Source of the DNA: an uncultured Candidatus Saccharibacteria bacterium
GTDB lineage: Bacteria; Patescibacteriota; Saccharimonadia; Saccharimonadales; JACDBH01
Length of the DNA stretch: 64,000 nucleotides
Reading direction: 5' to 3'
NCBI GenBank assembly: GCA_964642275.1
Contig: CAZXOA010000003.1
Span: 5,593-69,592, forward strand
Shown here: one piece after another, positions 5,665 to 53,181 of the stretch
How the letters are laid out: each line of letters begins with the position of its first letter
Position numbering within the stretch: position 1 is the stretch's first letter
The notes under the pieces: generated by a model
The model's input: only the letters and a program-made list of their open reading frames with translations
The model's database searches: none
Told to the model about the DNA's origin: nothing
Program-made: the position numbers and the translations under genes

Positions 5665-5671
5665 ATAACCA

Positions 5672-5681
5672 AAGTATACTT
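5672..5681. promoter_or_regulatory. palindromic shared -10 element (AAGTATACTT) in the 23-nt divergent murE-like/tsaD gap
   Basis: TATACT reads on both strands. It lies 7 nt before the tsaD ATG (5688) and 8 nt before the murE-like ATG (5664). The gap has no room for an SD or a 5' UTR. Confidence 0.45.
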
Positions 5682-5687
5682 GATACG

Positions 5688-27370: not shown

Positions 27371-28282
27371 ATGGATCCAAATAATCAGATTCCGACTCCT
27401 TATCCCCAAGCAGGCGATCAGCCTGCGCCTGCAAACATAGCCCCCGGCAGTGTCCCGATTGGTCCACAAGGGCAGTATACGCAACCTGGATATGCCCCCC
27501 AGGCACAAGCCGCAAATACCGGACAAACCGCGGCGCCGGTCAGGCAGACAAACCCCAATAGTACCCAGAATACCCTCCAGGTTGCCGAGGTAAGGGATGG
27601 TATTGTTATCATGAACGATGGCTCATTCCGGTCGGTGCTTATGCTCAGGAGCATTAACTTTGACCTTATGAGCCCGCAGGAACGCGAATCTGTTGAGTAT
27701 GCATACCAAGGATTCCTGAATTCGCTTTATTTTCCAATCCAGATACTGGTGCGCTCGCGCAAGGTTGATATCCGGCCCTACATAGAGAAGCTCGACAAAA
27801 TCCGCTCAGAACATGACAACATGCTGCTGGCACTGCTTATGGAAGACTATATTGACTTCATGGGCAATATCGCCATGCAGACAAACATCATGGATAAACA
27901 ATTTTATATCGTGGTGCCTTTTATACCCGAAGGCCTTGAGGCTCAGAAGGCAATTGAGGCAAGTAAAAACTTTATGAATAACCTGCTTGGGGCATTCAAA
28001 AAAAGCCAGGAACAGCACGTAACCATAAACGAGGCCGATCTGGAAGCTGCAAAGACAGAGCTGCGCAATCGCGTGCAGGCGGTTTTGGCGGGCCTGCTTC
28101 AAACTGGCGTGCAGGGCCTGCCGCTCGATACTCAGGAACTCATTGAGCTTTTCTATGACACCTACAACCCGGATACGGCAACCCGGCAGCAGCTTCGCAA
28201 CTTTGGCGACCTTACAGCTCCTGTTGTCACCAAGGGCCAGGGAGAGGCAACGCAGCCAAATCTTCAGAAGGAACTAAGATGA
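27371..28282 (+). CDS. hypothetical protein resembling a VirB4/TrbE N-terminal domain without an ATPase domain
   Basis: 303 aa. Pro/Gln-rich N-terminus, then VRDGIVIMNDGSFRSVLMLRSINFDLMSPQERESVEYAYQGFLNSLYFPIQILVRSRKVD. No Walker motifs. Confidence 0.5.
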   Translation: MDPNNQIPTPYPQAGDQPAPANIAPGSVPIGPQGQYTQPGYAPQAQAANTGQTAAPVRQTNPNSTQNTLQVAEVRDGIVIMNDGSFRSVLMLRSINFDLMSPQERESVEYAYQGFLNSLYFPIQILVRSRKVDIRPYIEKLDKIRSEHDNMLLALLMEDYIDFMGNIAMQTNIMDKQFYIVVPFIPEGLEAQKAIEASKNFMNNLLGAFKKSQEQHVTINEADLEAAKTELRNRVQAVLAGLLQTGVQGLPLDTQELIELFYDTYNPDTATRQQLRNFGDLTAPVVTKGQGEATQPNLQKELR

Positions 28283-28289
28283 TAGGGAA

Positions 28290-28317
28290 ATTTTCAATTT
28301 TCAATTTTCAATTTTCA
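28290..28317. repeat. heptanucleotide tandem repeat ATTTTCA x4
   Basis: Read directly: attttca attttca attttca attttca, followed by degenerate atca/atcatca. Confidence 0.95.
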
Positions 28318-28367
28318 ATCAATCATCAATGCCATGATGAATTAAATAGCGCTGCGCAGCAGCTGCC

Positions 28368-28403
28368 TTCATTGCAAATTGTTCATTGCAAATTGTTCAT
28401 TGC
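28368..28403. repeat. 14-nt tandem repeat TTCATTGCAAATTG x2.6
   Basis: Read directly: ttcattgcaaattg ttcattgcaaattg ttcattgc. Ends 18 nt before the virB4 ATG, just upstream of SD GAAAGGAG. Confidence 0.95.
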
Positions 28404-28421
28404 TCCTGAAAGGAGCGTCTG

Positions 28422-30341
28422 ATGGCTTTTGGCAAAAAAAATGATGCCGCTGCAAGCGACCCTGTTGCATTGGCCCAGGCTCAGAGGCTCCGTGAAGAGC
28501 AAGAGGTACAGGCAGCATTCCAAAAAGGCATTACCGCGCTACGCGATTTTATTGCCCCAAGTTCGATCGAATTCCAGAGCGGATTTTTCCGCATCGGCAC
28601 ACGTTATGCGCGAACTTTTTATGTCTACGGCTATCCAAGACAGATCTTCACTGGCTGGCTCAGCGGCATGGTTAATCTTGATGAAGTCATCGACCTGAGT
28701 ATGTTTATCTATCCCGTGGAGAGTCAAGTGGTGCTCGAAAACCTCCGCAAAAAGGTCACCCAGCTCGAAGCTGGTCTGCAAATCGATGCCGAGAAGGGCC
28801 GTGTCCGCGACCCGGGCAAGCAGGCGGCAATCCAGGACGCTGAAGAAATGCGCGACAAACTGCAGGTAGGCGAAGAGCGATTTTTCCGTCTTGGCCTTTA
28901 CTTTACCCTGTACGCTGGCAGCCAGGAAGAGCTTGAGTTTGTCACCCACAAGGTTGAGTCTCTGCTTGGCCAGCAGCTCGTCTACAGCAAGCCCGCCAGC
29001 GCTCAGCAAGAGCAAGGACTCAACAGCAGCGTGCCTCAGTTTACCGACCAATTGCAGATCAGGCGCAACATGAACACCGGAGCCCTGAGCACAACTTTTC
29101 CGTTTACATCGGCAGATCTCAGTCAGGAAAACGGCATTATGTATGGTATTAATATGCACAACTCAGGGCTGGTTATCTTTGACCGTTTCTCTCTCGAAAA
29201 CGGTAACTCAGTGGTGTTTGCCAAGTCTGGTGCTGGTAAAAGTTTTGCTGTGAAGCTCGAAGCATTGCGATCGCTTATGTTCGGCACCGAGATATTTATT
29301 ATCGACCCGGAGAACGAATACCAGCGCATGGCCGAAGCGGTTGGTGGAGCCTATGTACGGCTCAGTCTCAACTCTGTCACCCGCATCAATCCGTTTGACC
29401 TCCCTCAGGTTGTCGACAGCGAGGAGGCTGACAATGCACTGCGGAGCAACCTCATCACCCTTCACGGGCTCCTACGCCTCATGATGGGCGGAGCACAGGC
29501 GCAGATGGCAGGACAGCAAGCCGGTGCAATCATGCCAGCCCTGAGCCCGGTCGAGGAGGCTGATCTCGATGCAGCGCTTATCGAGACGTACGCTCGGGCA
29601 GGGATTACCAACGATCCGCTCACACACCAGTCGCCAGCTCCGACTATTGCCGACCTGTACGACGTACTCCTGCACATGGGTAATACCGGGCCGCAGCTTG
29701 CCCAGCGGCTGCGCAAGTACACCAGCGGTACTTTTGCGGGTATTTTCAGCCAGCCGAGCAATATCGATATCAACAATCCGTTGGTAGTATTCAATGTCCG
29801 TGACCTCGAGGACGAACTTCGTCCAGTAGCAATGTATATTGTCCTGAACTATATCTGGAACAAAACCAAGGCTGACCAAAAGCGCCGTATTCTAGTGGTC
29901 GACGAAGCCTGGCAGCTTATGAAGTATGAAGATTCGGCCAGCTTCTTATTCTCATTAGCCAAGCGAGCGCGCAAGTACAACCTGGGTATCACTACTATTA
30001 CGCAAGATGTTGAAGATTTTATGGGCTCACGTATGGGTCGTGCAATTGTTGCCAACGCCAGTATGCAGCTGCTGCTCAAGCAGTCTACATCTGCGGTTGA
30101 CGTCTTGTCGGAGGTGTTTAAGTTGACGAGCGAAGAGAAGAAACGGCTTAGTCAATTCCCGGTTGGGCAGGGACTGTTCTTTGCCGGGCAAAATCATGTT
30201 CATATTCAGATTTTGGCCAGCCCAACCGAACAAGGGCTTATAACCACCAACCCATCACAAGTACAGGCCATGGAGGCTGGCGAAATAAGCCAGGGGCAAG
30301 GTACAATAGACCTTGATAACAGATTAGCTCCAGGGATGTAG
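28422..30341 (+). CDS. virB4: VirB4-family T4SS ATPase
   Basis: 639 aa. Walker A VVFAKSGAGKSF, Walker B RILVVDEAWQLM. N-domain ...FIAPSSIEFQSGFFRIGTRYARTFYVYGYPRQIFTGWL typical of Gram-positive-type VirB4 (PrgJ/TrsE-like). Confidence 0.9.
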   Translation: MAFGKKNDAAASDPVALAQAQRLREEQEVQAAFQKGITALRDFIAPSSIEFQSGFFRIGTRYARTFYVYGYPRQIFTGWLSGMVNLDEVIDLSMFIYPVESQVVLENLRKKVTQLEAGLQIDAEKGRVRDPGKQAAIQDAEEMRDKLQVGEERFFRLGLYFTLYAGSQEELEFVTHKVESLLGQQLVYSKPASAQQEQGLNSSVPQFTDQLQIRRNMNTGALSTTFPFTSADLSQENGIMYGINMHNSGLVIFDRFSLENGNSVVFAKSGAGKSFAVKLEALRSLMFGTEIFIIDPENEYQRMAEAVGGAYVRLSLNSVTRINPFDLPQVVDSEEADNALRSNLITLHGLLRLMMGGAQAQMAGQQAGAIMPALSPVEEADLDAALIETYARAGITNDPLTHQSPAPTIADLYDVLLHMGNTGPQLAQRLRKYTSGTFAGIFSQPSNIDINNPLVVFNVRDLEDELRPVAMYIVLNYIWNKTKADQKRRILVVDEAWQLMKYEDSASFLFSLAKRARKYNLGITTITQDVEDFMGSRMGRAIVANASMQLLLKQSTSAVDVLSEVFKLTSEEKKRLSQFPVGQGLFFAGQNHVHIQILASPTEQGLITTNPSQVQAMEAGEISQGQGTIDLDNRLAPGM

Positions 30342-46595: not shown

Positions 46596-47804
46596 TTAAA
46601 GCAAGTGCTGCTGCTCTCTGTACCAATACCGCAACTGGTAAACACCGGTCTCCATAACCCTATAAGAAATATTGTCGGGCACCGCCGCTGAGGCATGGGT
46701 AAGTAAGCCTGCGCCCTCAAGCTCAGAAAAGAGGGCGGTGACAGAGTCCACAGCAGGGTACTGGACGTCTGGGGTGGTTCTATTGTGTACAGTACCCAGG
46801 GCATCAATCAAGAACGATACAGTCCAAAGGTGTTTCTCGATGGGTTTACGGGTTTCCACTCTGGCTATAAGAGGGAGAAGCACTTCGGCATTCTTTGTTC
46901 TTTTGGCAGTTAGTTGTTCATATTGTTTTAGTATTTCGGCCTGGGCTTGGTCTTGGCGGGCGACGATCAATGCGTACTCGGCATCGAAGTCGTCAATCTT
47001 TTGCTGCGCCAAATGACCAAATCCCGCATCAAGCGCTACGATTGCATCATAAAATTTCCCATACCAGTTAAATTTCTGCCGAACAGTATCTATATATGAA
47101 TCTCCAAAAAATTCCCTCAGTCCATCCTCGTCTGGTATCTGAAACCTCCCATTTGAATAAGGTGCCAATCTGTTGACATCATCCCAGGAGGTGGCTCGTG
47201 TCTCGATAGTATTCAGTAGGTCGAGCTGAGCTTTCTCAAGGAGGATAACAACTCTTTTGTGGCCGAAGTTTGCGGACCGTGGTTCGCACGAGATGCTCGT
47301 CTCATCTCGCTCATCAAGTGCTGCTTTAAGTCCGGCAAGAAGAGTCTGCTTGTCCGTCGGAAGGAGGAAAACACGGCCACCTACAGGTATCTCTGAGGCG
47401 TCCAACATATCTTCGACGTAATTGGCGCAGTAGCTCTCGTGTATCTCCTCTAGCTCTTCCAGCTTATCTAGTGCTACGCCAAGATCCGTGACTCGTTCCA
47501 TGTATTCATGCTGGCTATACTTTTTGTCTAAGGCTCGCAAAGAATCAATCTCTTTCATAGCATGGCTCGTCCGCGAGCCATGCTGGAGCCGTGCATATTC
47601 AGTCTCTTCTAGTCTGTAAAAGATATCTTCAAATGTACGTTCGGCCTGGCCTTTACGGTGTATAAAGGAAAATGCGCAGAGCATAATGGAAAAGGCAAGC
47701 ACAAGACTTAGTATGACAACTGGCTTTCTAGACATATTACTAGGGTAAATGGTAATAAACGTAACCACAAATACAAATATGAAGAAGCCAGCAAGGCTGC
47801 CCAT
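46596..47804 (-). CDS. hypothetical N-terminally anchored protein (402 aa)
   Basis: ORF track. One or two N-terminal hydrophobic segments, then a helical, acidic region. No family recognised. Confidence 0.6.
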   Translation of the reverse strand: MGSLAGFFIFVFVVTFITIYPSNMSRKPVVILSLVLAFSIMLCAFSFIHRKGQAERTFEDIFYRLEETEYARLQHGSRTSHAMKEIDSLRALDKKYSQHEYMERVTDLGVALDKLEELEEIHESYCANYVEDMLDASEIPVGGRVFLLPTDKQTLLAGLKAALDERDETSISCEPRSANFGHKRVVILLEKAQLDLLNTIETRATSWDDVNRLAPYSNGRFQIPDEDGLREFFGDSYIDTVRQKFNWYGKFYDAIVALDAGFGHLAQQKIDDFDAEYALIVARQDQAQAEILKQYEQLTAKRTKNAEVLLPLIARVETRKPIEKHLWTVSFLIDALGTVHNRTTPDVQYPAVDSVTALFSELEGAGLLTHASAAVPDNISYRVMETGVYQLRYWYREQQHLL

Positions 47805-48038
47805 TTCATTGTTATAACATGTGTTTTTTCAGCCCAGTACACATGCAGTGGATAAACAGCGGTATCATCTGTTAAACTGCAATAAAAATGTATTGTATAA
47901 TATAGTATTCTTTCAGCCATTGAGTGTCGACATAAGCGGAAATTTAGTGAAATCGTTTGTAACTTTTGTTAAGCTTCATTCAACAATATGAACAGCTACA
48001 CCAAATTCCTGAGATTTCTTCTTTGACTTCAGCTTGCT

Positions 48039-48293
48039 ATGCATTTTGCATGGTTTGGGATATTGCTCAATGCGATGAAGCCAAATGCTCCCTATATGTC
48101 AGGACTTGGAGCGATGCTGCCTATGATTATCTATTTCGGCCTTTGTTTTATCACTGTTCCAATGACCATCTTCTACCTCTATAAGTTGATATCTGGTAAG
48201 TGGGAAGGCGTTGACACCTGGATAATGGTGCTCATCGTCATGCTCGTTGTAGGTGTTCTTACATACGATGCACAGATCGATTTTCTAACCTAG
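48039..48293 (+). CDS. small membrane protein (84 aa)
   Basis: ORF track. Three hydrophobic segments (e.g. LGAMLPMIIYFGLCFITVPMTIFYLY, WIMVLIVMLVVGVLTY). Confidence 0.45.
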   Translation: MHFAWFGILLNAMKPNAPYMSGLGAMLPMIIYFGLCFITVPMTIFYLYKLISGKWEGVDTWIMVLIVMLVVGVLTYDAQIDFLT

Positions 48294-48340
48294 AACAGAG
48301 GGCAGGGGACAAAGCCCGAGAAGGTAAGATATGGCGGCTA

Positions 48341-49489
48341 TCACTTAGTGAGCACCGACTCGTAGACAAAGAAAGTTTGTTTTGCCATTTTTTCCCAAGA
48401 AAACAAGAGCAGGCGCTTATCCCCTAGTGTTCGTAATTTGTCCGCTAGCTTTGAATCTGTCAGAATTTGGTTAACTACAACAGCCATTGCGTGAATGTCA
48501 AACGGGTCGAAATAAAGCGCCGCCTCGCCGTATACCTCTGGCATACAGGTATTGTTGCTGGCAGCAACTGGCGCCCGGTGCGCCATAGCTTCGAGGCCCG
48601 GCAAACCAAAGCCTTCGCTCAGGCTTGGCAGCACGTAGCATGCGGTATTTTCGTACAGCCACTTGAGTTCCCTGTCGTCGACAAAACCTGGCGTGACAAC
48701 ATCGCTGCTGAATGCATTGGCGGCAAGACTGGCGTCGAAATCTGCCTTGAACTGACCCTTCATCTTGCCTGGCAAAACCAGCTGCAGATCTGGCTGATCA
48801 GCTTTGAGGAGCTCAAAAGCTTGCAGGAGACGGTCGAGGTTCTTATGCGGGAATGGTGCTCCTACATGCATGATGAATGGCCTTTTCACCCCTTTTATCG
48901 GCTTAGACTTCTCTTTTAGCGGCGGCTCGCTTGATTCATGGGTGACTACCAGCCGCCCGCTCGTAAACGGGTGCATAGTAAAAACGTCCCTTCCGACGAA
49001 ACGAGTTGGTACGATGATACGGTTGGACTTGCGGTGGCTTTGCCAGTACATAAATCGGAGCAGCCAAATGCCAATACGATGCATGATCGGGTTAAAGCGG
49101 CTGGCCCGCGTGTGGCGGAACATGGTGAGGTCGTGCGTGGTAGTGACTATCTTGCCAAAGTACAGAAACGGTTGCTGTGTCATGGTGAAATGCACCAGAT
49201 CCGGCTTGAGTTTATAGAGCAGGCGGGCAAACTTGATTTGCTGGAGAGGGTTAAAGGAGAACTGGGCAAAGGGAATTTGCATGGTTGTGAAGTTGGAACT
49301 GGTCATTTTCCAGTCGTCGTCAGCTTCGACCAAAATGGTGTAGCGGTTGGTTTTGTCGATGTTTTGCAGGTGGGTCACGAGCCTGTCGGTGTAGCGGCCG
49401 GTGCTGGAGCGCCGAATGCGCGCATCAATAACGATATGCCTTGCGGCAATATTTGATAGCTGAGGTTTGATATTTGAGGATTTATGCAT
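48341..49489 (-). CDS. glycosyltransferase, GT4-like (GT-B fold)
   Basis: 382 aa. C-terminal ...YVLPSLSEGFGLPGLEAMAHRAPVAASN... is the EX7E-type motif region of the Glycos_transf_1 family. Confidence 0.85.
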   Translation of the reverse strand: MHKSSNIKPQLSNIAARHIVIDARIRRSSTGRYTDRLVTHLQNIDKTNRYTILVEADDDWKMTSSNFTTMQIPFAQFSFNPLQQIKFARLLYKLKPDLVHFTMTQQPFLYFGKIVTTTHDLTMFRHTRASRFNPIMHRIGIWLLRFMYWQSHRKSNRIIVPTRFVGRDVFTMHPFTSGRLVVTHESSEPPLKEKSKPIKGVKRPFIMHVGAPFPHKNLDRLLQAFELLKADQPDLQLVLPGKMKGQFKADFDASLAANAFSSDVVTPGFVDDRELKWLYENTACYVLPSLSEGFGLPGLEAMAHRAPVAASNNTCMPEVYGEAALYFDPFDIHAMAVVVNQILTDSKLADKLRTLGDKRLLLFSWEKMAKQTFFVYESVLTK

Positions 49490-49544
49490 AAATGTATCTC
49501 ATTAATCCGGCCTAGAGCGAACCGTGTGAGACAATTATACCCGA

Positions 49545-50891
49545 ATGGCTTCACTTTCAAGTATCAAGTATCAAGTATCAAGTATGCCGAGGATATCCCT
49601 TTGGATATTTTTTAGCCTGCTGGCGTATATGCCGCTGCATATCTTTCTGTCGACATGGATCGGTACGAGTTTTGGGGTTTTGGATTTTGCAAAGATCGTC
49701 AAAGACGTAGTGTTAGTTATCGGCGCCCTGCTGATTGTTATCGCGAGTGTGCGCGAGCCGTGGTTCAAGACATTTCTGCGCGACAAGCTTGTGTGGCTTA
49801 TTGGCGGCTATGCTGCCTTAACACTCTGCATGGCACTCATCAAGCCGACTGATGCCGATGCCGAGGTGCTTGGCATTGTCTATAACATACGATTTCTGCT
49901 CTTCTTTGTGTATGCTTGGTTGCTTACTTATTTCTACCAAGTAGGATGGTTGCGGCGGACCGCTCTCAAGATAGTTCTCGGCATAGCAACTATCGTGATG
50001 CTGTTCGGGTTTGTGCAATACATGTGGCTGCCCGACAATGGGCTGGCGCACGTAGGCTATTCAAGAGAAAGCGGGGTTCTGCCAGCCTTTCATATTGATG
50101 ACAAGCCGGATCTGGAGCGCGTAATGTCTACTCTGCGGGATCCAAATTCATTTGGTTCGTATATCATTATTATCTTGGCAATCACCCTTGCCTACCTGAT
50201 GCGCACTAAGGATCGGGACCTAAAAAAGGCGCTAGCCGGGCTGGCCGTGCTTAGTGGGATGTGTTTACTGTTTACCTTCTCGAGGAGCGCCTGGCTTGGC
50301 GCTGTTGCTATGATACTGACAATCTTAGTGCTCCGGCTGAAGGCAGACGGCAGGCTGCGGTTTCACCCCGGTTGGGTAATAGGACTGGGCTTGGTTCTGT
50401 TCGTAACGATAGCCGGTCTCTATGCGGCGCGCGACACGTACTTTGTCAGGAACGTCATCTTTCATGCAGACAGCAGTACAGTGCTCGAGGATCCCAACCA
50501 GTTGAGGCTGCGGTTTTGGCGCGAGTCTATCGAATCTGCCGCTAAAAATCCTCTGGGCAACGGCCCTGGAACGGCCGGGCTGGCTTCTATCAGGAATGAA
50601 AAACAGGGTGTCGTATTGAATGAAAACTACTACCTGCAGATACTCCATGAGGTTGGTATTATCGGTCTGGCGCTGTTCGCTACAATTTTGGTAGTGGTAT
50701 TTTTGCGACTGATTCGCAATTATTCAGATCCGCTGACTGCTGGACTCATAGCTTCGTTCATTGGCCTTTTGCTGACAAACTTTCTTGTCCATATATGGGC
50801 AAACGAAGCAGTTGCCTATACGTGGTGGGGCTTGGCCGGGCTGGTCATACCAATGGTGGCTGCTAACAAACCAGCAAAGCGCCGCATTTGA
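49545..50891 (+). CDS. O-antigen ligase/polymerase-like (Wzy_C-type) polytopic membrane protein; start 49545 or 49584
   Basis: 448 aa, at least 10 TM. Characteristic LLFTFSRSAWLGAVAMIL segment and large loop ...RFWRESIESAAKNPLGNGPGTAG... Confidence 0.8.
   Translation: MASLSSIKYQVSSMPRISLWIFFSLLAYMPLHIFLSTWIGTSFGVLDFAKIVKDVVLVIGALLIVIASVREPWFKTFLRDKLVWLIGGYAALTLCMALIKPTDADAEVLGIVYNIRFLLFFVYAWLLTYFYQVGWLRRTALKIVLGIATIVMLFGFVQYMWLPDNGLAHVGYSRESGVLPAFHIDDKPDLERVMSTLRDPNSFGSYIIIILAITLAYLMRTKDRDLKKALAGLAVLSGMCLLFTFSRSAWLGAVAMILTILVLRLKADGRLRFHPGWVIGLGLVLFVTIAGLYAARDTYFVRNVIFHADSSTVLEDPNQLRLRFWRESIESAAKNPLGNGPGTAGLASIRNEKQGVVLNENYYLQILHEVGIIGLALFATILVVVFLRLIRNYSDPLTAGLIASFIGLLLTNFLVHIWANEAVAYTWWGLAGLVIPMVAANKPAKRRI
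49557..49585. repeat. heptanucleotide tandem repeat (T)CAAGTAT x4 at the 5' end of the O-antigen-ligase-like gene
   Basis: Read directly: t caagtat caagtat caagtat caagtat g. The last unit supplies the AT of the in-frame ATG at 49584. Confidence 0.95.
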
Positions 50892-50925
50892 TTGGCGCCG
50901 CCGGGGTGGTATGCTTAGTACTTAA

Positions 50926-51624
50926 ATGGCAGAGAAGCAAAAGAGATTTACTATAAGCCCCAGGCACGTGCTCGCTGTTGTCTCGGCTATATCGCTGTCA
51001 TTGGTATTGCTGCATGTTATGTTCCAGGCACTGTATCAAGTCGTTGGCATAGAGAAGGTAATCTTCCTGCGCGAACTGTTTGACCTAGAGCTTGAGGTGA
51101 GTATACCGACTTGGTATTCTCAGACGCAGTTGTTGCTTTGTGCTCTCTTTGCCGGCATGATTGCCCTGCATTTTTCGGTAACCAACAAGAAGCGAGACAA
51201 GAGAGCTTGGTTGCTTGTGACCGCACTCATGGTATTTCTATCTATTGATGAGGGCGGGGGTATTCACGAGCAGTCTATAGGCATTATTCAAAACAGCGAT
51301 CGGATTACAGGCACGGCCATCAATCCCTGGGTTGTATACGCGGTGCTGGTACTGGCGGTAGTCGGGGTGCTGTTCATAAGGTTCTTTATGCGCCTGCCGC
51401 GTAGGACGAAGGTTCTTGTTGCCGCCTCGGCCGTCATCTTTGTAACAGGCGCGTTCTTCATGGATATGGTCGGCGGCGGGTATGTGGACCGCCCTGCTCT
51501 ACATTCGTTGTTCTTCATCCCAGTTGAAGAAGGGTTGGAGCTGCTCGGTATTGCGTTGCTGACCTATGCTTTTGCCGATTATGCGAAACAGGCTGGTGTC
51601 AAGCTGTTCACTGAGTTTAAATAA
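50926..51624 (+). CDS. hypothetical polytopic membrane protein (232 aa)
   Basis: ORF track. About 6 hydrophobic helices. No family recognised. Confidence 0.6.
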   Translation: MAEKQKRFTISPRHVLAVVSAISLSLVLLHVMFQALYQVVGIEKVIFLRELFDLELEVSIPTWYSQTQLLLCALFAGMIALHFSVTNKKRDKRAWLLVTALMVFLSIDEGGGIHEQSIGIIQNSDRITGTAINPWVVYAVLVLAVVGVLFIRFFMRLPRRTKVLVAASAVIFVTGAFFMDMVGGGYVDRPALHSLFFIPVEEGLELLGIALLTYAFADYAKQAGVKLFTEFK

Positions 51625-51803
51625 GTATCCGAAGAGTACCAATATTACTAATTTCGAGTTCTGGAGTATTCTTGCGTGCCATGACACCCATCTTGTCGGA
51701 GTTGGCGAATGGCACAGAATGAGTGTGTTGGATACATTTGATGGAAGCAATTTACAAAATTGGTATACTCTAAGGTATAGAAGTGTTAAAGGAGATATAT
51801 AAG

Positions 51804-51974
51804 ATGTCGGAGCAGGCAGCTGAGGTAGGTTCATTTAAAGATTTTGAAGGGACCACAGACGAGTACACCCAAGCTCTTATCGCACACAGAGCTAGGCTGG
51901 CCGACTTGGCGGGCGTAACGCCTGAAAAGTTGCACATGATTAGCACTCCCGAGGCGACCCAGCGGGCATCGTAA
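51804..51974 (+). CDS. small hypothetical protein (56 aa)
   Basis: ATG 51804 preceded by strong SD AAAGGAGATATATAAG. Sequence MSEQAAEVGSFKDFEGTTDEYTQALIAHRARLADLAG... Confidence 0.45.
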   Translation: MSEQAAEVGSFKDFEGTTDEYTQALIAHRARLADLAGVTPEKLHMISTPEATQRAS

Positions 51975-52044
51975 CGCTCCCAAGTGATAAGAGGCTTCTA
52001 CGGGGAGCTAGCTGTACGTAAGACAGGTTTCTCTCGATAAAATT

Positions 52045-53181
52045 TCAGATGTTCTCAAGCTCGCTTTTGAGTGTCGCAGCTACTGTGTCCCAAGAGTAGT
52101 TTTTGAGGCGGGCGTTACCTTTGCTGACGAGTAACTCCCTAAGAGCGGGATCTTTCAGCGCCATTTCTAGTATCCTAGCAATAGACGCAGGGCTTTCTTT
52201 ATCAAAGTATAGGCTGGCATCGCCGGCTACCTCATGGAATACATCAATGTCGCTCAGGGCAGTTGGCAGCTGATGCTGCATAGCCTCCAATATCGGCATG
52301 CCGAATCCTTCGTAATGAGAAGGCATGACAAACAAGGTCGCATTATTATATAGCCATTCTTTTTCTGCATCACTAATATAACCGGACAAAATAATTCGGT
52401 AGCCTTTCTCTTGCAAAGCCTGGATGTAGGCAATGTCCTGCTCCATGTACCAGCCCATGCCGCCCGCGAGGACGAGCGCATAGGTATCTCGAATTTTCTT
52501 AGGCAAAGCCTCGTATCCCTTGACGAGTCCAATGACATTCTTTCTTGGCTCGAGAGTACTCACGAACAAGATGAACTTTCCCGCTAAGCCTTCAGGCCTT
52601 TGCGGCTTAACAGGGTGAGCGGCGGCAGGAGGTATTGGCGTGAGGACAAACTTAGAATCTGGCGTAGTGTAGTGCTTCTGGATGGCTCTTTTTGTGCTTT
52701 CTGATATGGTGATGACTCGAGCGGCTGCTTTAACAGACCGCGGTACAAACTTTGTCAGAAACCTCCTGTTCTGCTCGGCAACGAACTCAGGTACGTCAAT
52801 GTAGCAGAGATCGTGTACGGCCACGAACGTTGGAATTCGGAATATACTCGGGAGGGATACAAAATTGGGAAATACTGCCACATCACCGCGGGACTTGAAG
52901 AAGAGTTCCAGTGGAAGCTGGAGGCCAATACGCCGTAGCATATTCAGGATTTTTCCGGGTAAAATTCTCGACTCAACATAGGTTATATTGGGATGTCTCG
53001 GTAGTTCGAGATTCTTACGGCGTCCAAGAAAATTAAAGTAGTGGACTCTGAATTCTAGTTCGTCGGGGTACTTTGCAGCTAAGTTATCCAATACACGGTA
53101 GGTGTAGTAGCCCACGCCGGATTTGCTGCCATTTACTAGCGGTCCAGCGTCAAACAGAATCTTTAGCGGCTTATTTTTCAT
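52045..53181 (-). CDS. glycosyltransferase, GT4-like
   Basis: 378 aa. ...FVMPSHYEGFGMPILEAMQHQLPTALSD... motif region. Confidence 0.85.
   Translation of the reverse strand: MKNKPLKILFDAGPLVNGSKSGVGYYTYRVLDNLAAKYPDELEFRVHYFNFLGRRKNLELPRHPNITYVESRILPGKILNMLRRIGLQLPLELFFKSRGDVAVFPNFVSLPSIFRIPTFVAVHDLCYIDVPEFVAEQNRRFLTKFVPRSVKAAARVITISESTKRAIQKHYTTPDSKFVLTPIPPAAAHPVKPQRPEGLAGKFILFVSTLEPRKNVIGLVKGYEALPKKIRDTYALVLAGGMGWYMEQDIAYIQALQEKGYRIILSGYISDAEKEWLYNNATLFVMPSHYEGFGMPILEAMQHQLPTALSDIDVFHEVAGDASLYFDKESPASIARILEMALKDPALRELLVSKGNARLKNYSWDTVAATLKSELENI

Follow-up and report, generated by a model that had tools for sequence, protein, structure and literature searches.

What is a perfect, non-triplet tandem repeat doing in the first codons of a surface-glycan gene? 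The question is raised by a stretch of 64,000 nucleotides from an uncultured Candidatus Saccharibacteria bacterium (contig CAZXOA010000003.1; hereafter the window), in which a gene for an O-antigen ligase/polymerase-like membrane protein of the Wzy_C family (49545..50891, plus strand; 448 aa from its first ATG) opens with four identical heptamers, TCAAGTA x4 at 49557-49584, equivalent to CAAGTAT x4 at 49558-49585. A first-pass annotation of the window had interpreted the tract as a slipped-strand contingency locus. Its account of the repeat anatomy holds, but the contingency inference finds no support in comparative data: the orthologous arrays have four units in seven of seven lineages, all of them in frame, they are conserved at synonymous sites, and a mirrored array lies in the neighboring glycosyltransferase gene of the GT4 type. 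We consider the tract, with a probability of roughly 0.45, to be the sequence-perfect case of an ancient, fixed-length cis-acting element that would co-control the Wzy_C and GT4 genes; for the more generic proposition that the arrays function in cis, we see about even odds.

Mirrored heptad arrays and their conservation

Read from the start codon, the order is ATG (49545-49547), GCTTCACTT, and then a flawless period-7 run of 29 nt (49557-49585) followed by G 49586, which places the array 12 nt from ATG 49545. Tandem Repeats Finder (TRF) reports period 7, 4.1 copies and 100% matches for 49557-49585 (score 58), and the four units (49557..49584, plus strand) encode SSIKYQVSS(M). A census of the window (GC 48.7%) found two perfect heptamer tracts of at least four copies, this one and another at 28289-28319, and such a tract appeared in 0/300 second-order Markov shuffles. 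The anatomy described earlier was thus read correctly in its essentials: a four-copy non-triplet heptamer at the gene start, confirmed by direct reading and by TRF; an ATG 49545 that at four copies is in frame with the 448-aa body, the open reading frame (ORF) running to 50891; and a second four-copy heptamer tract near virB4.

At the same position, six further orthologous lineages (protein identity about 55–62%) have an array that is in register and counts exactly four heptads, or 28 nt. Including the window, seven lineages have the array (the others being L171, L002, L003, L004, L010, and L172), with four units in 7/7 and an in-frame array in 7/7, and the distance from start codon to array is 9–18 nt and always a multiple of 3. 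Four of the six other lineages follow the consensus TCAAnTA: their Wzy-side units are TCAAATA, TCAAATA, TCAAGTA, TCAAGTA in L002; TCAGATA, TCAAATA, TCATCTA, TCAACTA in L003; TCATCTA, TCAAGTA, TTCTCTA, TCAAATA in L004-9; and TCAACTA, TTAAATA, TCTTCTA, TCAAATA in L171. L010 and L172 have an inserted 120-aa ORF that precedes Wzy_C on its strand (2139-2501 and 2142-2504, respectively) and belongs in L172 to the 23S_rRNA_IVP family; the stop of this ORF overlaps a TTG start of Wzy_C (aTTGA). There, with the divergent-promoter context removed by the inserted ORF, the units have decayed to the CCAACTA type (L010) and the CTAnCTA type (L172). Most other orthologs have neither an array nor an N-terminal tail.

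Across the intergenic gap, the array has a mirror image. The divergent GT4 glycosyltransferase gene (48341..49489, minus strand; 382 aa) has ATG 49489 as its only possible start, and 12 nt after it, in the same codon phase as on the Wzy side, stand TCAAATA, TCAAACC, TCAGCTA, TCAAATA (49450..49477, minus strand). As no other start is available, this array must be translated; it encodes SNIKPQLSN(I), and the two N-termini placed side by side read MHKS-SNIKPQLSNI for GT4 and MASL-SSIKYQVSSM for Wzy_C. The GT4-side array agrees with TCAnnTA x4 at 18/20 positions, whereas 40 shuffles gave an expectation of 0 for scores of at least 17. The two arrays form an inverted repeat (49449-49477 / 49557-49585) with arms of 29 nt that are 76% complementary and 79 nt apart.

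The window, L171, and L003 each have the mirrored array 12 nt past the ATG of GT4, and six of the eight translated TCA-type arrays begin 12 nt past their start codon. L171, the closest relative by GT4 (77% identity), has a near-perfect array on the GT4 side and a degenerate one on the Wzy side; the former (2377-2404, sample SRR16797999) consists of TCAGATA and three copies of TCAAATA and fits the N-terminus of protein P0122, MNKSSDIKYQISNI. The GT4-side units of L003 are TCAAGTA, TCAAACA, TCAAGTA, TCAACTA. The GT4-side array of L004 is degenerate and sits a little before the GT4 ATG; since it is untranslated there, the array peptide appears dispensable. L002 has no GT4-side array. Within 278 kb of Saccharibacteria loci, arrays scoring at least 16/20 occur only at the 5' ends of Wzy_C and GT4. 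Separately, we observed that the Wzy_C 5' module of L002 (305-345), GTGAAAAAATCC followed by TCAAATATCAAA, is similar to the window's GT4-type module, ATGCATAAATCC followed by TCAAATATCAAA (49489-49450, minus strand); judging by the likeness, it may be a trace of exchange or inversion between mirrored arrays.

The arrays are conserved also where a protein sequence would not demand it. On the Wzy side, all five TCA-type lineages agree in the third base of 6/9 array codons, compared with 33/438 codons elsewhere (P = 1.3e-5), and on the GT4 side, for which three lineages could be compared, it is invariant at 8/9 versus 71/288 codons (P = 1e-4). Of the alignment columns, 19/28 are invariant in the array, 0/12 directly before it, and 4/12 directly after it; as the flanks have diverged and the array has not, the segment is not merely younger than its surroundings. 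Serine in the array is always encoded by TCA, a codon that makes up 16% of the serine codons of the window. A profile of 40 units (T32 C33 A37 A30 n T37 A38) has positions 1, 2, 3, 6, and 7 at 80–95% each and position 5 free, and conservation therefore tracks the heptad register and not the codon register. Within these alignments, the retention of array third positions beside diverged flanks shows selection on nucleotides, rather than on a peptide or on hypermutability. Coding arrays are possible only in the TCAAnTA orientation because in the reverse one, TAnnTGA, three units are enough to close every frame, a property already remarked for TAACTGA repeats (PMC4679880).

Start codons, putative promoter and the proposed element

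The gap between the GT4 and Wzy_C genes is 55 nt long (49490-49544), as the first-pass annotation had it, and contains a GACAATTATA box (49530..49539) with a −10-like hexamer (GACAAT / AATTAT) 6–9 nt upstream of ATG 49545; the sequence leading into the Wzy_C start reads GACAATTATAcccgaATG(49545). On the minus strand, toward GT4, the GACAATTATA box gives TATAAT and matches the TACAATTATA box of most orthologous loci. The latter is near-palindromic, presenting TACAAT toward Wzy_C and TATAAT toward GT4, and is conserved ~20 nt before the Wzy_C start in L004-L045 and L166-L171, the GT4/Wzy_C intergenic region of such loci often being merely ~17–25 nt. Of 44 distinct orthologous loci, 31 have a −10-like hexamer of the TAyAAT type 3–12 nt ahead of a start codon that is in frame; in 23 of the 31 it is TACAAT, mostly inside the TACAATTATA box. 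None of ATG 49545, 49584, and 49629 is preceded by a Shine–Dalgarno motif, whereas other genes of the window have one (AAAGGAG before virB4). From the −10-like boxes and the absent Shine–Dalgarno motifs, we infer that Wzy_C starts at ATG 49545 and that both it and GT4 have little or no leader. Another tiny divergent intergenic region lies at 5665-5687 (23 nt), with a TATACT −10-like hexamer 7–8 nt from both ATGs; having no Shine–Dalgarno motif, that gene pair is probably leaderless as well. The same region holds one TATCAAGTAT, a 10-mer pattern with five matches across the window against 0.26 expected, the other four being in the arrays.

The idea that copy number could alter the spacing from promoter to start fails for ATG 49545, since both the −10-like box and that codon precede the tract. 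We also tried the minus strand of the array (TTGATA / TTGAAA) as a −35 element of GT4 and rejected it: TATAAT lies 15 or 22 nt away from it, the promoter scan came back empty, and the spacing of the proximal unit would be unaltered by copy number.

Two more in-frame ATGs follow the tract. The first (M14; 49584..49586) is made by the last repeat unit and the following G, as had been pointed out before and as direct reading confirms, and is in frame with the gene body whatever the copy number, giving a product MPRISLW... Its counterpart is ATG in L171 (MQKISLW) and ATC in L002, L003, and L004, and many orthologs begin near the equivalent position with short N-termini (MQKISLW, MLKRLSL). The second (M29; 49629..49631) is the start of the public gene call (P0001, 420 aa); its position within LLAYMPLHIF, the first and conserved transmembrane segment, makes it an unlikely true start. 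Among the 120 listed homologs, 13, P0001 included, are called from 'MPLHIF' and have their N-terminus cut off. That these are frameshifted OFF alleles was rejected, as the four loci retrieved (P0017, P0044, P0048, and P0074) all have in-frame upstream starts and no arrays; the 'MPLHIF' starts are artifacts of start choice by gene callers and not frameshifts. A look-up of the 448-aa (M1) and 435-aa (M14) products returned no public record.

With these starts, the proposed cis-acting element would comprise four contiguous TCAAnTA heptads in roughly codons 5–14 of the Wzy_C gene and a mirror copy equally far (12 nt) from the start codon of the divergent GT4 gene, while a shared near-palindromic −10 box would drive both near-leaderless genes. 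Each array could then serve as a multi-site platform for a sequence-specific nucleic-acid-binding protein that co-regulates both glycan genes. If the protein acted on DNA, the arrays would be operators or roadblocks at ~+13 to +40, with a logic like that of the contiguous-heptad operators of ribbon-helix-helix (RHH) proteins; if it acted on mRNA, it would bind the first 40 nt of both messages and control initiation. We regard action at the DNA level as a tentative proposal and give action at the mRNA level slightly less weight, the two being about equally possible. In the direction of mRNA point the sense orientation of both arrays in their own transcripts, their 12-nt offset from the start codon in six of eight cases, the predicted lack of structure in the array region of the Wzy mRNA, and the post-transcriptional role proposed for TAACTGA heptamers (see below); in Rfam, no RNA family matches the arrays. 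Slippage of the perfect tract would be a possible by-product of such an element and not the cause of the tract's existence. It is possible, if somewhat doubtful, that a heptad-reading protein couples GT4 and Wzy_C via the coding-embedded mirrored arrays, with the perfect Wzy array additionally a possible slip-strand switch; on that same reading, and held just as cautiously, the coding-embedded mirrored TCAAnTA element would be previously undescribed in Saccharibacteria.

Several observations weigh against a shared, ancient cis-acting element. The sample is small (Wzy arrays of the TCA type, n = 5; coding GT4 arrays, n = 3), and a rough neighbor-joining tree does not group the lineages with arrays as monophyletic, being itself too star-like to separate a single origin with losses from other histories. 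Neighboring units are identical in L002 (AA AA AG AG) and in the GT4 array of L171 (TCAAATA x3), which suggests some slippage or conversion in these arrays. A generic promoter scan found no sigma-70 site with 16–18 nt spacing, and the leaderless status is deduced solely from the −10-like boxes and the missing Shine–Dalgarno motifs. The gap between the two arrays is 79 nt in the window, 69 in L171, 103 in L003, and 79 in L004, and this variation does not fit a rigid looping geometry. A candidate binding protein was not found: small ORFs in its vicinity gave no Pfam match, and none of the scanned neighboring ORFs (within 64 kb) has an RHH or helix-turn-helix domain.

The surroundings agree with the surface-glycan context assigned to the gene by the first reading. 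The Wzy_C protein matches Pfam PF04932 with E = 7.9e-15 and 55.4 bits (gathering cutoff 31.7), all NCBIfam equivalogs score far under cutoff, and no sequence relative was found in PDB, on which grounds we assign it neither the ligase nor the polymerase role; the homologs with a source name are mostly from Candidatus Saccharibacteria. Besides the neighboring GT4 gene, the cluster contains additional GT4 genes farther along, an ABC-2 permease, and a TagH/Wzt-like ATPase, and the neighborhood is a cell-surface glycopolymer cluster. Directly 3' of Wzy_C, L004 (5360-6049) and L171 (3839-4528) have a Y1_Tnp gene (IS200-like or RAYT-like); at the counterpart position, the window has a 232-aa membrane protein without a family match.

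Slippage, peptide, and inverted-repeat explanations

The strongest rival is the slipped-strand switch itself, in which gain or loss of a unit would shift the frame of ATG 49545 and turn Wzy_C and with it the surface glycan OFF or ON. The tract has the expected form, a perfect 28-bp run whose unit length is not divisible by 3, within the ORF and directly behind the likely start codon. Modeling of copy number in the frame of ATG 49545 bears out the earlier statement that one unit gained or lost puts this codon out of frame: with one, four, or seven copies it is in frame with the gene body, and two, three, five, and six copies give products of 18, 52, 25, and 59 aa, the single-step changes to three or five copies thus cutting the reading frame to 52 or 25 aa. 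Slippage in the tract is physically possible and would truncate this frame. A heptanucleotide in a 5' coding region has a precedent in the AAGACTC repeat of neuO (PMC13001214), the window holds a second perfect four-copy heptamer tract within its 64 kb, and the like neighbors in L002 and the L171 GT4 array hint at earlier slippage or conversion. The consequences of a frameshift depend on ATG 49584, which is always in frame, begins the protein where many orthologs begin, and could buffer the change; but if the mRNA is leaderless, this codon, lacking a Shine–Dalgarno motif, might be little used, and the OFF states would be real.

Against a switch stand the unit number, only four, and the fact that it is four in all seven lineages with each translated array in frame, where neuO ranges over 3–53 copies and is OFF in 65.6% of genomes; neither copy number nor frame varies among the related loci. 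No variant or OFF allele is on record. The sole other contig found for this locus, L001 from an independent public assembly (Logan SRR16797981), is 100% identical to 46629-53101 of the window (6,473 nt) and likewise has four copies, and the P0001 cluster has a single member (n = 1). Degenerate arrays incapable of slipping keep the unit sequence at synonymous sites as well, and hypermutability is therefore not the property that is maintained. The perfection of the tract, finally, is weak evidence for slippage: the array of L002 is only two A/G differences away, both at heptad position 5, so that two point changes would suffice, and when units are drawn from the other seven arrays, four identical ones are obtained with P ~ 0.0175 per array and 0.13 for at least one array in eight. 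A switch at the tract is not favored, and we hold the contingency explanation to be unlikely.

Somewhat less probable still is that the arrays have no nucleic-acid function and are either a tolerated repeat or an N-terminal peptide motif, S-x-I-K-Y-x-[LV]-S-x-I, common to the cytoplasmic N-termini of the two proteins and inherited through an inverted duplication of the 5' module. The same decapeptide does occur in both proteins, in the same phase and four residues after Met, with Lys (AAR) and Tyr kept and with variable residues that are small and polar, and an N-terminal tail that is variable and dispensable in the wider family would make a repeat bearable. Selection on a peptide alone would not be expected to yield the third-position invariance (P = 1e-5 and 1e-4), however, nor would it explain why the untranslated GT4-side array of L004 is still recognizable; and flanks that have wholly diverged around a kept array argue against a simple recent ancestry of the segment. 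The encoded motif was absent from 149 newly returned distant proteins (50%-identity representatives), a clustering in which the close Wzy_C family amounts to a single representative, and a profile search with four array-encoded N-termini scored 44 candidates and gave nothing useful.

A function of the inverted repeat as such, be it an invertible ~79-bp segment carrying the start codons and −10 box or a long RNA or DNA hairpin stem, is very improbable: the 29-nt arms are 76% complementary and 79 nt apart, an RNA spanning both arrays would fold at −46 kcal/mol (z = −3.2), the most distal units of the two arrays are identical within L171, L003 (both TCAACTA), and L004, and the Wzy 5' module of L002 (AAATCC, then TCAAATATCAAA) is GT4-like as after inter-array exchange, but no recombinase gene adjoins the locus in the window, inversion of a near-palindromic −10 box would alter little, no transcript across both arrays is to be expected if both genes start at the central box, and the variable positions of units 1–3 are poorly complementary, the baseline complementarity being mostly that of the shared consensus.

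The second perfect tract of the window consists of (TCAATTT)x4.4, equivalent to AATTTTC, at 28289-28319, and is followed by 2.6 copies of a 14-mer, TTCATTGCAAATTG, at 28368-28403. Both repeats lie inside the 139-nt gap between two ORFs over which a VirB4-like ATPase is split (27371-30341): a 303-aa ORF at 27371-28282, resembling the N-terminal part of TrsD/VirB4 (VirB4/TrsD profile positions 2–121), and a 639-aa ORF at 28422-30341, VirB4 of the CD1110 type (positions 180–732 of the family model), which has an AAAGGAG Shine–Dalgarno motif. TCAATTT and TCAAnTA have T1, C2, A3, A4, and T6 in common.

The conserved, mirrored four-heptad element inside coding sequence is to us the more interesting result. 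Gene regulation in Saccharibacteria and other bacteria from the candidate phyla radiation (CPR) remains little known, and their surface glycans are likely to matter for an epibiotic lifestyle. A nucleotide-conserved element in the first codons of two divergent glycan genes offers an experimental handle, a 28-bp bait for a putative regulator, and the locus is a test case for leaderless divergent promoters in these bacteria. A literature search for phase variation or simple-repeat contingency loci in Saccharibacteria/CPR found no paper on the topic, and, should the tract slip, it would be, as far as we know, the first simple-repeat phase-variable locus proposed there. For genome scans, the case carries a caution: a short repeat without a single mismatch may owe its perfection to chance, as the extreme case of a periodic motif under constraint, and not to slippage.

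Comparison with known repeat systems

The contingency tracts of Haemophilus and Neisseria lipooligosaccharide/lipopolysaccharide genes are long and strain-variable in length. In the tetranucleotide loci, as in the tract described here, a simple repeat of non-triplet unit occupies the 5' coding part of a gene for surface glycans, whereas the present tract is short and of evolutionarily fixed length.

A closer parallel in unit size is neuO of the CUS-3 prophage in E. coli K1, in which the copy number of 5'-AAGACTC-3' repeats ranges from 3 to 53 and the OFF state is found in 65.6% of complete genomes (PMC13001214). In both, a surface-glycan gene has a 7-nt unit within the 5' end of its ORF, where it is translated into an N-terminal peptide, and the full-length frame returns only at every third copy number. 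Unlike in neuO, the unit number here is four in all lineages and the arrays are in frame, with synonymous conservation across distant orthologs, a mirrored array in the neighbor gene, and a frame-independent ATG right behind the tract.

[quoted passage not shown] The reverse complement of the unit in the window, TACTTGA, fits TAnnTGA, and SSIKYQV is comparable to LSVISYQ. The unit nevertheless differs at 2/7 positions, and only a single gene pair has the arrays, translated and in reverse orientation, with no other high-scoring arrays in the 64-kb window and 278 kb of related loci; they do not belong to the TAACTGA type. A metagenome scan for TCANNTA x4 gave at least 120 stretches (L046-L165), including perfect TCAGTTA, TCAATTA, TCAGCTA, TCAACTA, and similar arrays, TCAGTTA being the reverse complement of the TAACTGA repeats of Beggiatoaceae and Cyanobacteria. 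Perfect heptamer arrays of this sort thus abound in public metagenomes. Among the matches listed, none is near a Wzy_C or GT4 homolog, and the scan is therefore uninformative on the locus. The same matches include TCAAGTA runs in unrelated contexts, exactly x4 in L060 and L144 and interleaved with TCATGTA in L083.

Contiguous heptads read by a protein are known from the RHH protein omega (ParB of pSM19035), which binds 7-bp WATCACW units in direct or inverted arrays at promoters, at least four contiguous units being needed for full function (PMC9499535). The arrays fall outside this operator family, as the test for the WATCACW consensus failed: in that register, their unit is TATCAAR, with A and not C at position 6. 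They are also located in coding 5' ends downstream of a −10 box, not over the promoter, and in chromosomal glycan genes. What the two have in common is nonetheless a run of contiguous, ungapped heptads built around an ATCA core, with four consecutive units on the Wzy side as on the GT4 side and in every lineage.

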